From NCBI GenBank assembly GCA_029863625.1, contig JAOTUY010000001.1, forward strand, positions 82,046 through 146,045: a DNA stretch of 64,000 nt. Reading direction: 5' to 3'. Origin of the DNA: Acidimicrobiia bacterium (GTDB lineage: Bacteria; Actinomycetota; Acidimicrobiia; Spongiisociales; UBA4744). This document shows positions 52,831 to 59,231 of this stretch, in pieces (positions within the stretch are counted from its first letter, which is position 1; every line of letters starts with the position of its first letter). The position numbers and the translations under genes are program-made. The notes beneath the pieces are model-generated. The model was not told where the DNA came from, searched no databases, and worked only from the letters and a program-made list of their open reading frames with translations.

Positions 52831-52914
52831 GATGGTCCCCGTTGGTCACGCTGATGGTAGATCGCACCGAGCCGGGGTGGGGCGGGCAGGGCAACCCCGG
52901 AAGGTTGCCGGAAG

Positions 52915-52985
52915 AGCGGGTGAGGGGAATTGAACCCCCGTTCCAAGCTTGGGAAGCTCGTGTTCTACCACTGAACTACACCCGC
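52915..52985 (-). tRNA. tRNA-Gly (anticodon CCC)
   Basis: The reverse complement folds as a cloverleaf: acceptor GCGGGTG/CACCCGC, D-arm GTTC-AGTGGTA-GAAC, anticodon stem/loop CGAGC-TTCCCAA-GCTTG, T-arm GGGGG-TTCAATT-CCCCT. CCA is not encoded. Confidence 0.85.
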
Positions 52986-53469: not shown

Positions 53470-55614
53470 CTACGCGGTGCCGACTGCTCGCCTGCTCACG
53501 ACCACCGGTAGGTGGGTCGGGCCGGTCAGCCGGTCGGATTCGAGCATCGAGATCCGTTCCGGGTCGACTTGAAGCTCCATCTCGTGGAGCCGGGGCCTGA
53601 TCGCCGCCAGCGCTGCTTGGGCCTCCAACAACGCCAGGCGCGCCCCGGGGCACCGATGCGGCCCGGCACCGAACGCCAGGTTCGACACGAGATCTGCCAG
53701 GCGCGTGCTCTCGGCATCCGGAGTTTCGGCGCCGTTTGCTGCGGCGAGGTTCGCAGCAACCACGGTGCGCGCGGCGAGCGATCGCTCACCAATCGCCGTC
53801 TCCTGGGTCACCAGCCGGTACACCCGGGCGACAGGTGGCCGGGTCCATAACACCTGTCCAAGGAGCGCTTGGTCCGATAGGCGCGCCCTGGGCGGCACGC
53901 CGGCGGCGAACAACGCGACTAGGGCATTGCCGATCAGGTGCGTCGTCGTTTCGTTGCCGGCCACTAGGAGCAAGCGGGCCACGCTGACCGCCTCCTCTGC
54001 GGCCAGGGCCTGGAGACCGTGCAGGATGGAGCTGATGAGATCCGCTCCGGGCGCCCGCTGCAGCCGGTCGACCAGGGCGACCAGCGCTTCTTCGAGTTCC
54101 GCGAGGTCACTCTCCGAATCGATCGAGTCACCTCCCTGCCTAACCCCGGTGCCGGCCAACACCACGGCGTCGGACCATCGGCCAAGGTCTGCAAGAGGCA
54201 CGCCGTCCAATCCGAGGAGCCATCCCATCGTGGCCACTGGGAGAGGTTTGGCGAAGTCGCCGACGAGATCACCGGTCCCTCTGGTGAAGATCTGTCCAAC
54301 GAGACGGGCGGCGAGTGATCGAACTTCGGGCTCGAGCGCAGCGACCCGGCTGTCCGACAGGGCCTGCGTCAGCGCCCGGCGCGTGCGTGTGTGCGCCGGC
54401 GGGTCGGCTCCCAGCAGAACGGGATCCGCCGCGGCCATAATGGAAGAGGAGAACGACTCCGGGTCGCGCAGCACTGTGATCACGTTGTCGCGGCCGGTGA
54501 TCTCGACAGGACTCGCCGGCGCTTTGTCGGCGGGTCGCCGGGAGGTGGTTGCGGATCGGATTGGGGTCACCTCGAGCGGCGGTGCCGGATCCGACGGGGA
54601 GACTTCGAGCCTCGTTTGTATCGCCCTCAAGGAGCTGAGCACAGTGGCGGCCGTGTAGTTCCGGTTCTGATCGAAGATGATCGATCCGGCGCCCCTTCCG
54701 GACGCTACCCATCCGTCATGGTGTTGCGGATCGACGACGTTGGGCGGCGGGATTCGTAGCGACGCCGACGCCGCCCACGCTCCATCCGCGGCTTGGGTGG
54801 CGAGGAGCCAGCCGGCTGCGCGCTCCAGTCGGTCCAACACACTGTCGGGGCCCCAGCGGGCCATGGTCTCCGCGGCACAGGCCGTGGCGAAGGATGACCC
54901 GCTGGGGTGCCAACGCGTCGCAACGGCCCCGACCACATCGACGCGTGAGCACATGGCGAGGGCCGCTCGCTGGAGTCGCTCCAGGTTGTCCGGTGCTGCG
55001 GCGCGCCCCAGCATGCGGCCCGCCAGCATGGTGGGGTACTCATCGTCGGCCCACCAGTATCCGGTCCAGGACCCGTCGGCGTTTTGCACCGATCTGAGGT
55101 ATTCGACGGCGCGCTGATGACCCGCATACTCGGGGATATCGGCGGCAGCCGTCACGCACACGTGATCGCCGCACCACCCCGCGAACGAGATGGAGCCCGA
55201 AAGCTTCGTGAATGCCCCGATCCTCCCGGCGGATCGGAACGTGGCGACCGCCCCCGACGGACGAGCGTGCCGGGCTACCAAGTCCAGCGCCCGGCTCGCC
55301 CGTCGGCCGCCGAGGTTGCCCATCCGTTCCGCCAGCTGCAGCGCCCACAATGTGGAGTCCGCGTCCGTTGGCACCCTCCGGTTGTAACCCCAGCCACGCT
55401 CCCAGCGCCGGCGACGCCGCAGCAGCCGCCATGCATGGCGCGCCGCCTCACGAGCCCGTTGCTCGGGCTCACCCGCGATCGCGACGGCGACATAGGCCGT
55501 CACCCACTCGTCGCTCGCTCCGGCCAGGGTGTCGAAGTCGCGCCACCAGCCTCGGCGGTCCCGACCGGTCAGCAGGAACTCGGTTGCCCGGTCGCGACCA
55601 GCCTGGATCTCCAT
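53470..55614 (-). CDS. Fusion protein: N-terminal class-II terpene-cyclase-like (squalene-hopene-cyclase repeat) domain plus C-terminal cytochrome P450
   Basis: N-domain: FLLTGRDRRGWW, DEWVTAYVAVAIAG, VPTDADSTLWALQLA (DxDD to DADS), QNADGSWTGYWW, QAADGAWAAS (QW motifs). C-domain: I-helix LVAGNETTTHLIGNA, heme loop FGAGPHRCPGARLA. ATG at 55614. Track residues 1-162 are an Arg-rich artefact overlapping the next gene. Confidence 0.75.
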   Translation of the reverse strand: MEIQAGRDRATEFLLTGRDRRGWWRDFDTLAGASDEWVTAYVAVAIAGEPEQRAREAARHAWRLLRRRRRWERGWGYNRRVPTDADSTLWALQLAERMGNLGGRRASRALDLVARHARPSGAVATFRSAGRIGAFTKLSGSISFAGWCGDHVCVTAAADIPEYAGHQRAVEYLRSVQNADGSWTGYWWADDEYPTMLAGRMLGRAAAPDNLERLQRAALAMCSRVDVVGAVATRWHPSGSSFATACAAETMARWGPDSVLDRLERAAGWLLATQAADGAWAASASLRIPPPNVVDPQHHDGWVASGRGAGSIIFDQNRNYTAATVLSSLRAIQTRLEVSPSDPAPPLEVTPIRSATTSRRPADKAPASPVEITGRDNVITVLRDPESFSSSIMAAADPVLLGADPPAHTRTRRALTQALSDSRVAALEPEVRSLAARLVGQIFTRGTGDLVGDFAKPLPVATMGWLLGLDGVPLADLGRWSDAVVLAGTGVRQGGDSIDSESDLAELEEALVALVDRLQRAPGADLISSILHGLQALAAEEAVSVARLLLVAGNETTTHLIGNALVALFAAGVPPRARLSDQALLGQVLWTRPPVARVYRLVTQETAIGERSLAARTVVAANLAAANGAETPDAESTRLADLVSNLAFGAGPHRCPGARLALLEAQAALAAIRPRLHEMELQVDPERISMLESDRLTGPTHLPVVVSRRAVGTA

Positions 55615-55622
55615 CTGAGAGG

Positions 55623-56252
55623 TCAGCAGGATGCGGTGATGTACGTCGCGTTGGGGGCCAGCACTTGTGCGCCGGCGTTGGCAGTGGGGCCGCTGCTCCA
55701 GCTTCCGCCGCTGAGCACCTTCACCGACACCTGCCCGGTCGACGGATTCCACACGACGAACTCGCCGGCCCTCAGTCCGCCCCCGATGGCCGATGTTTCG
55801 CCGCAGAAGGCGTTCACCGTCGCTCCGCCGGGGTTGATCGTGCCTCGGCCGACGTAGAAGCGGTTCTCCAGCGCCCACGAGTCGAGCTCGCCGCCGCCGC
55901 ACGAGTGGACGATCTCGTGAAAGACCGTCACGTCCGTGTCCGCTTGCACATTGGGTGGTAACGCCAGCGCACACATGTTGATGCTGTCCCCGTCCCGCGG
56001 TGCGGTGCCGAAGATGCCCGCCCGGCAGCTGCCTCCGAGACAGTCCACGTTCACCGACGCAATCGTCTTGCCGGCGAGCCGGTTCGCCAGGGTGGCGCAC
56101 TCGCCGCCCAACGCAGCCACCTGGGCCCGAATCGTGTTTTGCATGAAGTTGAAAGCGGAGGTGATCGCGTTGCGGTCGTTGAGATTGCAGTTCGGTACCT
56201 CCGTACCGCCTCCGGACCAGCTGCCGCCCTCGGTGTGTGTTACGAACGGCAT
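55623..56252 (-). CDS. Cys-rich HExxH zinc-metallopeptidase-like protein
   Basis: VTVFHEIVHSCGGGE (HExxHxxGxxE). About 10 Cys, no signal peptide. ATG at 56252 lies 7 nt after the upstream stop, with GAGG. Confidence 0.55.
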   Translation of the reverse strand: MPFVTHTEGGSWSGGGTEVPNCNLNDRNAITSAFNFMQNTIRAQVAALGGECATLANRLAGKTIASVNVDCLGGSCRAGIFGTAPRDGDSINMCALALPPNVQADTDVTVFHEIVHSCGGGELDSWALENRFYVGRGTINPGGATVNAFCGETSAIGGGLRAGEFVVWNPSTGQVSVKVLSGGSWSSGPTANAGAQVLAPNATYITASC

Positions 56253-56259
56253 GGAAGCC

Positions 56260-56721
56260 TCAGGACTCGAACTGCCACAGCACAAGCACGCCGCGGCTCA
56301 GTGGAAGGGGTACCTTCGAACCCTCGCTCGCGGCGCGGTACGAGCCGACCTGGGCCCGGCGGGCGTACATCGCCGCATCGGCGGGCTCGAGTGCGATCTC
56401 CCATCGAACCACGCCACCATCCGGAAGCTCTTGCGCACTCTGCAGCTTGATGGGCTCCTCGAGGTTCTGACCCTCGAACGGCGACTCGCCCTCCATCTCG
56501 ATGGGCTCGCCGTCACGCTCGTAGAGCTGCAATTTCCACGCCGCCACCTTCTTCTCCTCCATGAAGTGCACCTCGATGGAGGCTTTGCGTCCGTTGGCAT
56601 CGACGAGCTGGCCGGACCAGACGCTACGTTCTTGGGCCACGCGCGCTCCTTTCGCTGAGCGGCTCGGCGATGCCGGGCGTAGCCGGGACACCGCAGCCGG
56701 GTGGTCGTAGGCCGAAAGCAT
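56260..56721 (-). CDS. Hypothetical 153-aa acidic protein
   Basis: ORF between the acyltransferase and the HExxH gene. No known motif. Confidence 0.45.
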   Translation of the reverse strand: MLSAYDHPAAVSRLRPASPSRSAKGARVAQERSVWSGQLVDANGRKASIEVHFMEEKKVAAWKLQLYERDGEPIEMEGESPFEGQNLEEPIKLQSAQELPDGGVVRWEIALEPADAAMYARRAQVGSYRAASEGSKVPLPLSRGVLVLWQFES

Positions 56722-56731
56722 ACACTCGGGC

Positions 56732-57691
56732 TCACGCCTTGTAGGCGATTCTTTCGATGGCCTCGAGCACCGAGGACGAGTCGTCGTGGGCGCTCATCGT
56801 CGGCAGGACTGCGGCCCCGCCGGCAGCTTCAGTCACTGCGGTGGACAAGATGGGGTGAGGGCCGACTTCGACGAAGGTTCGTATGCCGGCGCGCGCCATG
56901 GAGCGGACAGCGGATACAAAGAGTGCCGGTTCGGACATGACGCGCCACCAGTAGTCGATTGTCAGGCGAGACCCATCGATGGCAGCGCCCTTGAGCGAGG
57001 AGTAGAAGGGCGCCGGTGCCGAGCGGGGCCGGATCGACGAGGCGGCGGCACGGAACGGCTCGCGCAGCGGCTCCATCTCGGCGCAGTGGAAGGCATACCG
57101 CAGCGTCTGCCGGCGCGTCCCGAGGCCCCGGGCGGCCACCACTGCCAGCGCCGAGTCGACGGCGCCCTCTTCGCCGGTGATCACGGTTGCCGTCGGGCTG
57201 AGCTCGACGGCGATCCAGACGTCGTCTCGTCCGTCGATGGTTTCCCGTACCGCCTCGGCTGATGCCAGCACCAGGGCCATTTGTCCGGACCGTAGCGGGC
57301 GTCGGATGGCCTCCGCTTCGGCGCCGGCAACGGCGATGGCGTCCTCCAGGCTCAATGAGCCGATGGACCACGCCGCGGCGAGTTCCCCCATGCTGAGACC
57401 CACCACCGCGTCCGGCGCCACCCCGGCATCGGCTAGCATCGCCGCTAACCCGATTTGAACGGCCGTGAGCACGGGCTGCACCCGATCCGGCTCTGCGTCG
57501 GAACCTCCCAGCCGCGACACCTTCTCGAGAATCGACCAGCCGAACTGATGTCGGCAGGCGGCATCGCAATCGGCCATCGCTTTGGCGAAGGCGGCATTGT
57601 CTAGTAGCAGTCCGTCGGCCATCCCGGGCCACTCCCCGCCCTGGGAGGAGAACACGAAGGCCACGGCGCCGGTCGTGAATAGGTCGTTCAC
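56732..57691 (-). CDS. Stand-alone acyltransferase (malonyl-CoA:ACP transacylase / PKS-AT fold) with a GLSMG active site
   Basis: AFVFSSQGGEWPGM (compare FVFPGQGSQ), GLSMGELAAAW (GHSxG variant), AFHCAEM. GTG at 57691 overlaps the upstream stop as GTGA. 320 aa, which matches FabD length. Confidence 0.7.
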   Translation of the reverse strand: MNDLFTTGAVAFVFSSQGGEWPGMADGLLLDNAAFAKAMADCDAACRHQFGWSILEKVSRLGGSDAEPDRVQPVLTAVQIGLAAMLADAGVAPDAVVGLSMGELAAAWSIGSLSLEDAIAVAGAEAEAIRRPLRSGQMALVLASAEAVRETIDGRDDVWIAVELSPTATVITGEEGAVDSALAVVAARGLGTRRQTLRYAFHCAEMEPLREPFRAAASSIRPRSAPAPFYSSLKGAAIDGSRLTIDYWWRVMSEPALFVSAVRSMARAGIRTFVEVGPHPILSTAVTEAAGGAAVLPTMSAHDDSSSVLEAIERIAYKA

Positions 57692-58677
57692 GGCTGAATG
57701 TGGGATGCGCCGAACCACGAGTACACCACCGAGGGCAGGGCCGAGTGGAGCCAGCCCGGTACCTGCGCCCCGGCTGGGAGCCGATGCCGCCATTCCTCGA
57801 GGCTGTGCACTCCACGGGAGACGATGCGGGCTGCCACGGCGGCCGGCGGGCGGGACCGGAGCGCGATCTCCACCAGGTTGGGCTCGTTTGCCTGCTCGTC
57901 CGCCTCGATGTCCATCGCGTCGTCGATTGCGCCGATGAACGCGCCGACGCCGAACATCCAACGGAGGTGCCACAGGAAGGTCGCCCGATCGGGAGATTGC
58001 GCCGGGAGCCACGCGGGCAGTCCCAGGACCACGAAGGGGAGCGCCGCTTTACGACGGAGCAAACCCGGCACCGCCAGTACCCCCGGTCGCGTCAGCGCCA
58101 CCTCAGCGGCGTGCATGCGCACCACGGCGTCGTCAAGTAACCGCCGAACCGTCTGGGCGGCGTCGCCGTGGGGGAGATCGTCCACCTCCGAGAAGTACCG
58201 CCTGACGAGCAGCGCCACGGCTCGGCCCGGCGCGAGCAAGTCTCGGGACCGTCGCCGAGGAGCGCCAGCCCAGTGCCCTAACAGGTCGAAAACGTCTTCG
58301 GGGAGCAAGCCGTTCGCTGGGATCCCTGCGTCGAGAAACGCGTCGTAGACCGTGACGATGAGGTTGGCGAGCGCCCCGATGTCGGCGACCCATTGCTCGA
58401 GGTCTGGTGCCAGGCCCAGCGGTGCGATCAAGAAACGGGTGAGGAGCCAGCCGAAGCCCATGATGCGGACAGGGTCGTCCGGACCCAGCGCCGTGGGCAG
58501 GGTGGCCATCGCGTCGAGCCAGGTCCTCGACCCCGCCAGCGGATCCAGGTCCCTCCAGAGACGTGCCCCTTGGCGCGACACGTGCCCGCGCACGTCCTGG
58601 TAGACGTGCGCGGACGGGATCAACTCGCGTGTCATCAGCTCATCCCAGACGAGCCGGCGAACAGTCACCGCAGGCAA
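57688..58677 (-). CDS. All-alpha protein with Asp-rich motifs at class-I terpene-synthase-like spacing (function unknown)
   Basis: VYDAFLD (roughly residue 112) and IDDAMDIEADE (roughly residue 252), about 140 aa apart. 329 aa with no TM. Translationally coupled to the acyltransferase. Confidence 0.5.
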   Translation of the reverse strand: MPAVTVRRLVWDELMTRELIPSAHVYQDVRGHVSRQGARLWRDLDPLAGSRTWLDAMATLPTALGPDDPVRIMGFGWLLTRFLIAPLGLAPDLEQWVADIGALANLIVTVYDAFLDAGIPANGLLPEDVFDLLGHWAGAPRRRSRDLLAPGRAVALLVRRYFSEVDDLPHGDAAQTVRRLLDDAVVRMHAAEVALTRPGVLAVPGLLRRKAALPFVVLGLPAWLPAQSPDRATFLWHLRWMFGVGAFIGAIDDAMDIEADEQANEPNLVEIALRSRPPAAVAARIVSRGVHSLEEWRHRLPAGAQVPGWLHSALPSVVYSWFGASHIQP

Positions 58678-59015: not shown

Positions 59016-59231
59016 CTATGAGAAGACGCTGGCCCCTCCCCACACGGCCAAGATAACTCCGACGGCGCCCAGGAACCAGGCTCGACCCGGCCGGAATTCA
59101 CCTTCCACTCCCCGCGGGCGCTCGCCTCGCCGATTCTTGAAGATGGCCAAGCCGTTGCCTAGGACCATCGCCAGTCCGATGGCCAGCACCACCTCAGGGA
59201 ACAAGCTCTCCAACCCAAAGATGTCATCCAT
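59016..59231 (-). CDS. Small 2-TM membrane protein
   Basis: 71 aa, two hydrophobic helices. No clear Shine-Dalgarno. Confidence 0.35.
   Translation of the reverse strand: MDDIFGLESLFPEVVLAIGLAMVLGNGLAIFKNRRGERPRGVEGEFRPGRAWFLGAVGVILAVWGGASVFS

Follow-up and report, generated by a model that had tools for sequence, protein, structure and literature searches.

An unannotated protein family with a predicted class I isoprenoid-synthase fold is the genomic partner of MstE-type terpene cyclases in a conserved bacterial cassette

In a 64,000-nucleotide stretch of DNA from an Acidimicrobiia bacterium (contig JAOTUY010000001.1, positions 82,046 to 146,045; hereafter the window), a gene on the minus strand encodes a 329-aa protein whose Asp-rich motifs recall those of class I terpene synthases. 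The locus thus raises the question of whether this protein, referred to below as the target, is such a synthase, as a preliminary description made from the sequence had proposed, or an enzyme of another kind built on the same fold. We report here that the target represents an unannotated class-I-fold family within a new conserved cassette, in which its regular neighbor is a class II terpene cyclase resembling MstE. The gene and the parts of it on which the argument depends are as follows:

57688..58677, minus strand: target gene, encoding a class-I-fold (isoprenoid synthase alpha-fold) enzyme of an unannotated family.
58330..58350, minus strand: first acidic motif, VYDAFLD (residues 110-116; D112 and D116), a putative Mg2+ site equivalent to the DDxxD motif or first Asp-rich motif (FARM).
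58036..58056, minus strand: RRKAALP (R208-P214), a basic pair and a Pro that kinks the helix; candidate diphosphate sensor.
57877..57924, minus strand: second acidic motif, DDAMDIEAD...PN (D252, D253, D256, D260 and N267), with DDAMDIEAD (residues 252-260) at 57898-57924.

The preliminary description had given the length and position of the open reading frame (ORF), two Asp motifs about 140 residues apart and a GTGA overlap with an acyltransferase gene, and reading the window bore out all three. The ORF begins with TTG; D112 and D252 are separated by 140 residues, D112/D116 and D252/D253/D256/D260 all being present; and the GTG start of the acyltransferase gene (57691-57689) shares bases with the TGA stop of the target (57690-57688), a junction that was also seen in two other loci (L001 and L020). 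In identical public contigs gene callers place the target start at an ATG at 58635, which would give a protein of 315 aa. The segment RRLVWDEL (residues 7-14, within 58635-58677 of the window), which lies before the annotated ATG, is kept in homologue alignments. Because homologues align through these residues, the alignments support the longer, 329-aa form as the more likely one, with translation from an upstream TTG or GTG start.

To which fold does the target belong? An AlphaFold2 model built with an 11-sequence alignment consisted of helices only (predicted local distance difference test score, pLDDT, 88.7; predicted template modeling score, pTM, 0.90), and every Foldseek match in the PDB at E≤0.003 was a class I terpene synthase or an isoprenyl diphosphate synthase (IDS). 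The fold matches, each with its match value, were:

Sat1646, a pimarane-type class I diterpene synthase: 17.5.
T-muurolol synthase, a class I synthase: 17.1.
BalTS, a class IB synthase: 16.7.
LrdC, a labdane-related class I synthase: 16.6.
trans-IDS, chain-elongating synthases: 15.8-14.
DabA, an alpha-fold prenyltransferase: 15.4.
MoeN5, an alpha-fold prenyltransferase: 15.1.

In the model, D112 and D116 lie at the C-terminal end of helix 91-116, and D252 to D260 at the end of helix 231-255 and in the subsequent turn; we take these locations to be the DDxxD/FARM and the NSE-DTE or second Asp-rich motif (SARM) positions of the isoprenoid-synthase fold. The placement of R208-P214 presumably mirrors that of the pyrophosphate-sensor Arg of bacterial class I synthases: R208, R209 and K210 sit 42-44 residues upstream of the second motif, the criterion for the sensor Arg being about 46 residues upstream of NSE. 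The modeled structure shows the target family to have the class I isoprenoid-synthase (terpene synthase/trans-IDS) alpha fold, and it shows the acidic motifs at canonical metal-site positions, where they would be expected to bind metal. An all-alpha protein had been predicted in the preliminary description, which had also named fold prediction as a check on its proposal; the purely helical model and the isoprenoid-synthase alpha-domain returned by Foldseek agree with it on both counts. The alternative that it had kept in view, an oxygenase of the DUF2236 or latex-clearing type (PF09995), was rejected, with no Pfam hit at E≤1 and a confident model that resembles isoprenoid-synthase folds alone, and we consider it exceedingly improbable.

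Homologues were collected by a word-indexed search and by an exhaustive profile search over cluster representatives at 50% identity. The former returned 11-15 relatives, profile query included, and the latter 438 cluster representatives at E≤1e-3, 181 among them at E≤1e-30; all of these proteins were unnamed. In a 100-sequence alignment (23-46% identity to the query), from which all conservation figures for the target are taken, D112, D256, D260, G74 and G76 were invariant, D252 and D253 were each kept at 99%, and D116 was kept in 93% of sequences, with Glu in the other 7%. Conservation was likewise high at N267 (97%), P214 (92%) and K210 (91%), with R209 at 63%. Position 111 was Tyr in 61% and Phe in 35% and never Asp, so that the first motif reads [YF]-D-x-x-x-D throughout the family, the non-canonical DxxxD form that had been noticed in the window. 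Since they are near-invariant across 100 sequences (93-100%), the Asp motifs are, as judged from the alignment, family-defining and beyond chance; conservation of these residues in homologues was another of the checks proposed beforehand, and it leaves the proposal standing. At least 90% conservation was also found for each of N105, Y161, M188, E192, P214, W223, H237, W240 and W321, and the C-terminus carries the conserved residues S320-W321-x-G323. That the polar or aromatic residues N105, Y161, E192, H237, W240 and W321 are kept to this extent besides the Asp residues suggests a single conserved reaction for the family rather than a product-diversifying cyclase.

We then asked whether the target could be assigned to a known family. 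It had no match in Pfam or NCBIfam at E≤1 and none in PADLOC, and searching the PDB by sequence, with a single-sequence or a profile query, gave nothing significant. Terpene-synthase hidden Markov models (HMMs), alignment to which had been suggested in the preliminary description, matched neither the target nor any of the 100 relatives (hits at E≤0.1). The DDxxD of canonical class I synthases is absent, only D112 and D116 being acidic, and there is no C-terminal RY pair. The second motif, D252-D253-x-x-D256-x-x-x-D260, has the spacing and place of NSE/DTE, yet it carries Asp at all three ligand positions and can also be read as the SARM of an IDS. Because no HMM matches, YDxxxD replaces DDxxD and the RY pair is lacking, the target lies outside every canonical terpene-synthase family. 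What survives of the original proposal is therefore the fold and the place and spacing of the motifs; membership of a terpene-synthase family and a specific role as a synthase were not established.

The SARM-like character of the second motif brings in one alternative, namely that the target is a chain-elongating trans-IDS supplying geranylgeranyl diphosphate (GGPP) or a longer donor. The DDxxDxxxD...G stretch does align locally with the SARM region of Escherichia coli IspA (segment DDILDVVGD; the match is non-significant), and the polyprenyl_synt model weakly matched 2 of the 100 members at E 0.028, below threshold. By contrast, comparing the family profile with IspA by hhalign gave a probability of 0.45%, for the SARM region only; a FARM of the form DDx(2-4)D is absent, and by inspection the basic residues with which IDS enzymes bind isopentenyl diphosphate are not among the conserved columns. 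Moreover, the cassette described below would hold no enzyme using the diphosphate. We regard a chain-elongating role as very improbable.

The deciding evidence, which the preliminary description had lacked, comes from the genes that accompany the target. The target lies within a five-gene minus-strand operon, between a PhzF-like gene on one side and dcd and a tRNA-Gly gene on the other. The remaining genes of the operon are as follows:

56732..57691, minus strand: stand-alone polyketide synthase-type acyltransferase (AT) of 319 aa (Pfam Acyl_transf_1, E 5e-57), GTGA-coupled to the target; accessory.
56260..56640, minus strand: p126, a 126-aa protein of unassigned family; candidate prenyl acceptor/precursor or product-binding protein.
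55623..56252, minus strand: p209, a 209-aa aspzincin-like protein with a Zn-metallopeptidase fold and HEIVH at 55905-55919.
54610..55614, minus strand: MstE-type monodomain (beta-only) class II terpene cyclase domain, with the acid motif DADST at 55351-55365.
53470..54609, minus strand: cytochrome P450 domain (Pfam p450 and NCBIfam P450 models), C-terminal to the cyclase in the same protein, with the heme motif FGAGPHRCPG at 53644-53673.

A single gene at the end of the operon (53470-55614) thus encodes a 714-aa cyclase-P450 fusion in which a cyclase of about 335 aa is followed by a P450 of about 370 aa. Residues 8-329 of the cyclase domain matched MstE (PDB 6sbf; phmmer E 3e-64), DADST aligning with DADTT of MstE, and the domain also matched the 'prenylcyclase' PDB 6ij1 (phmmer E 4e-53). 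To determine which of these genes belong with the target, we screened 30 non-redundant loci containing a target homologue with profile HMMs, the loci being drawn from encoding-contig look-ups, GTDB genomes and JGI metagenomes. An MstE-like cyclase was found beside the target in 22 of the 30 loci, p209 in 19, p126 in 13, the AT in 8 and a P450 in 4. Target homologues with no partner occurred at only three loci, all on contigs of at most 2 kb. The hosts include, besides the Acidimicrobiia of the window itself, Vicinamibacterales, Burkholderiales and Gemmatimonadota, and the GC content of the cassette loci spans 38% to 71%. The P-x-DAD-[ST] acid motif is kept in all of the cyclase partners examined, with DADD in P0073, a natural fusion of 711 aa (L021, 20-2155) in which an MstE-like cyclase is followed by an alpha-fold domain. 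These observations show that the conserved cassette consists of p126, the aspzincin-like p209, the cyclase and the target, with the AT and the P450 as accessory genes, and that the target is a dedicated genomic partner of the MstE-type cyclase. The family is probably the marker of a pathway, not yet described, in which a cyclized terpene is attached or built. As to gene arrangement, cyclase and P450 are separate genes in L011 and L012 and are fused in L023 as in the window, and a p209 homologue is located immediately downstream of P0073 on the opposite strand.

Because the target neighbors an MstE-type cyclase in a conserved cassette, a prenyl-transfer role is at least as likely as the cyclase role first proposed. 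Of the two small proteins of the cassette, p126 had no relatives in Pfam, NCBIfam or the PDB. Its N-terminus carries an invariant W8xG..D..G, and its C-terminal tail is of the form G-hydrophobic-W-[QRKH]-[FY] (...G-V-x-x-L-W-Q-F), with the Trp kept in 14 of 14 members and located 3-9 residues from the C-terminus in 13 of them. Three loci contain p126 in two copies; the paralogue at L011b has a seeming signal peptide, which may have arisen because the longest ORF was taken. p209 has the motifs HExxH..GGxExD, conserved Cys residues and no signal peptide, and the conservation of its N-terminus begins at residue 1 (MxFKTHTEGGSWxGGG). Some 50 homologues turned up, each labelled 'hypothetical', many of them ending in GGGSW[IVL]. 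We also considered the three GGSW motifs of p209 as Trp acceptor sites. This candidate was downgraded: the internal motif fits the propeller-blade motif of the pyrroloquinoline quinone (PQQ) type and is probably structural, and HExxH...D is kept as in an active peptidase.

We tentatively favor the reading that, in a split prenyltransferase-cyclase pair, the target takes the part of prenyl transfer, with the C-terminal Trp of p126 as the most plausible acceptor and with class II cyclization coming afterwards, while judging the chance of this to fall somewhat below even. We infer Mg2+-dependent ionization of a prenyl diphosphate by the target. In such a pathway, D112/D116 at the end of one helix and D252/D253/D256/D260/N267 at the helix end opposite would hold the Mg2+ ions through which the target binds an allylic prenyl diphosphate, and K210/R209 would contact the diphosphate. 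Since no IDS gene was found within 10 kb of the target, the donor, probably C15-C20, would come from primary metabolism. Ionization of the diphosphate would yield an allylic cation with which the target would alkylate a nucleophile, the best candidate being the invariant Trp close to the p126 C-terminus; within the attached chain, the MstE-like domain would next protonate the distal double bond and so bring about cyclization, p209, being Zn-peptidase-like, would cut the precursor to size, and decoration of the terpenoid would fall to the P450 and the AT. A co-conserved peptidase-fold protein fits the logic of peptides made on the ribosome and modified after translation (RiPPs).

Several points weigh against this scheme. 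The Gln just upstream of the second motif, which has been proposed to serve Trp recognition in ComQ, PalQ, ChrPC and Ord1, is absent from the target family, position -3 being Gly in 79% and position -2 Trp in 55%. The body of p126 is long and conserved, and its C-terminus is conserved rather than hypervariable; p126 could instead be a folded ligand-binding protein. Some loci have p209 and the cyclase but no p126, and the stand-alone AT is left with no explained role. Furthermore, ChrPC, ComQ and PalQ are likened to the target by their descriptions, not by sequence. The fuller form of the proposal, that the cassette is a widespread multi-phylum system placing a cyclized C15-C20 terpenoid on the C-terminal Trp of a protein of about 125 aa, from which a Zn-peptidase then frees a terpenylated peptide, would amount to a new RiPP or protein-lipidation class with a new prenyltransferase family devoid of the Trp-recognition Gln; we consider it possible and put it forward with considerable doubt.

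In the main rival reading of the same gene set, the target would be a genuine class I terpene synthase, if a non-canonical one, and would form a tandem with the class II cyclase like those known from labdane-type diterpenoid pathways: a prenyl diphosphate would be cyclized through protonation by the MstE-like enzyme, and the target would ionize the product and complete the skeleton, with the P450 and the AT as tailoring enzymes, p126 binding the hydrophobic product and p209 as an accessory. The motif places and the 140-residue gap correspond to DDxxD...NSE/DTE, with D252/D256/D260 at the N/S/E positions, the basic pair 43-44 residues upstream of the second motif is pyrophosphate-sensor-like, a class II enzyme, a class I enzyme and a P450 make up the classic terpenoid cluster set, and altered motifs are already known from the non-canonical subclasses IB-IF of class I. 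However, characterized MstE-type cyclases use chains attached to an (aromatic) acceptor and not free diphosphates, the target lacks both the RY pair and DDxxD, its 100 relatives match no terpene-synthase HMM, and the island contains no IDS gene. Nor would a synthase explain why p126 and the Zn-peptidase-fold p209 outrank the P450 and the AT in cassette conservation. We consider a class I synthase rather unlikely, if quite conceivable.

The substrate of MstE suggests yet another possibility. MstE is described in a review as cyclizing, via its DxD motif, a C20 chain already joined to an aromatic (benzoate) head group. The target could accordingly be a soluble prenyltransferase that loads a polyprenyl chain on a small-molecule acceptor, aromatic or other, to provide a meroterpenoid substrate for the MstE-like cyclase, standing in for the membrane-bound UbiA-type transferase of the merosterolic-acid pathway; the AT and the P450 could then build or tailor the small-molecule part. 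Yet the core cassette has no gene for synthesis of an aromatic acceptor, the AT is present in just 8 of the 30 loci and the peptidase-fold p209 is left unexplained, and we hold a small-molecule acceptor to be improbable.

The surroundings of the operon point to the origin of the locus. A tRNA-Gly(CCC) gene (52914-52985, minus strand) lies about 480 bp past the final gene of the operon, and the GC content of the 54-60 kb region is 66-69%, compared with about 62% across the remaining window. The proximity of the tRNA gene and the raised GC content suggest that the 54-60 kb region is a horizontally acquired island. No match was found among the PLSDB plasmids by tblastn with either the target or p209. 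We also weighed whether a 71-aa ORF (59016-59231, minus strand), flanked by the PhzF-like gene and the target, might be a precursor peptide, and rejected this: L001, the closest homologous locus at 72% identity, does not conserve the ORF, which has two hydrophobic segments and resembles a small membrane protein. As for the AT, its active-site Ser is embedded in GLSMG where GHSxG is usual, its specificity-motif position reads YAFH, and no acyl carrier protein or ketosynthase gene was found near it. In one homologous locus (L006, 57-1734, and L007), an enzyme of the MbnB/TglH/ChrH (DUF692) type, a 174-aa partner and an 87-aa ORF are divergent from the alpha-fold gene and AT pair, an arrangement that puts a RiPP-type cluster directly beside the target family.

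Enzymes with a terpene-synthase fold that are missed by all HMMs are hard targets for sequence-based genome mining, and a family of about 440 unnamed representatives at 50% identity, with invariant, distinctive acidic motifs and a fixed partner set, makes a clean experimental target. If the split prenyltransferase-cyclase pair is real, the modification of ribosomal peptides or proteins with polycyclic terpenoids would cease to rest on two characterized fusions, NctPC and ChrPC; its reach would extend to Actinomycetota, Acidobacteriota, Gemmatimonadota and Proteobacteria, and the target would be a new prenylation catalyst for Trp (or another acceptor). If the target is instead a class I synthase, the pair would constitute a minimal beta plus alpha two-gene class II/class I tandem, which bears on the origin of multidomain terpene synthases.

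How does the cassette compare with known systems? Sat1646 and LrdC, bacterial labdane-related class I diterpene synthases, share only 11% identity with the target and have canonical DDxxD and NSE/DTE motifs where the target has YDxxxD and DDxxDxxxD. The class II enzymes that accompany them are of the beta-gamma didomain kind and use GGPP as substrate, in contrast to the MstE-type monodomain cyclases. In BalTS (class IB, PDB 5yo8; BalTS/YtpB type) the corresponding motifs are DYLDNLxD and DY[FLW]IDxxED, and those of class ID (D[N/D], ND and RxxKD) are unlike the target as well. The published motifs thus set the target apart from classes IB and ID, and none of classes IB-IF has been reported to be tied to an MstE-like cyclase. 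The partner itself is like MstE in that its 335 N-terminal aa align end to end as a single beta domain of the type of about 340 aa, with a DxD acid motif. It differs in being fused to a P450, and the cluster has no UbiA-type prenyltransferase, the target alpha-fold enzyme occupying that slot.

The trans-IDS-like Trp prenyltransferases ComQ, PalQ and Ord1 resemble the target in their all-alpha isoprenoid-synthase fold and in Asp pairs at i,i+4 (D89/D93 and D200/D204 in PalQ), and their acceptor Trp is at or near the peptide C-terminus. By contrast, sequence similarity between the target and IDS-type profiles was not detectable, and the Gln beside the SARM (Q197 of PalQ, proposed to recognize the indole N-H) is missing, the target having G249 (79%) and W, L, A, Y or R at position 250. 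In addition, the second motif of the target is fully acidic and invariant, whereas ComQ has no true SARM and the SARM Asp of PalQ is dispensable. PalQ itself was formerly mis-annotated as a terpene synthase.

The nearest parallel in logic is offered by the RiPP maturases NctPC and ChrPC (Hubrich et al., Chem 2024), which, as summarized in the 2026 review PMC13290415, combine a prenyltransferase and an MstE-like cyclase in one fused protein: a peptide Trp receives a C10-C20 chain from the transferase, after which the chain is cyclized by the cyclase. The P domain of ChrPC is described there as having a trans-IDS-like fold and no InterPro entry (PMC13290415). The cassette differs from these systems in that the two activities are normally encoded by separate genes, the sole fusion, P0073, being ordered cyclase then alpha domain; the target has no Gln upstream of its second Asp motif; p126 belongs to none of the proteusin, Nif11 and lanthipeptide precursor types; and an aspzincin-like protein is an obligatory third component. 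The likenesses are that a prenyl-diphosphate-type enzyme is paired with an MstE-like monodomain cyclase, and is fused to it in P0073, that Trp-bearing proteins are encoded beside the target, and that the alpha fold in question has no family entry, as with the ChrPC P domain. By this analogy, the cassette looks like a split version of the NctPC/ChrPC logic, equipped with a candidate precursor and a candidate peptidase of its own.

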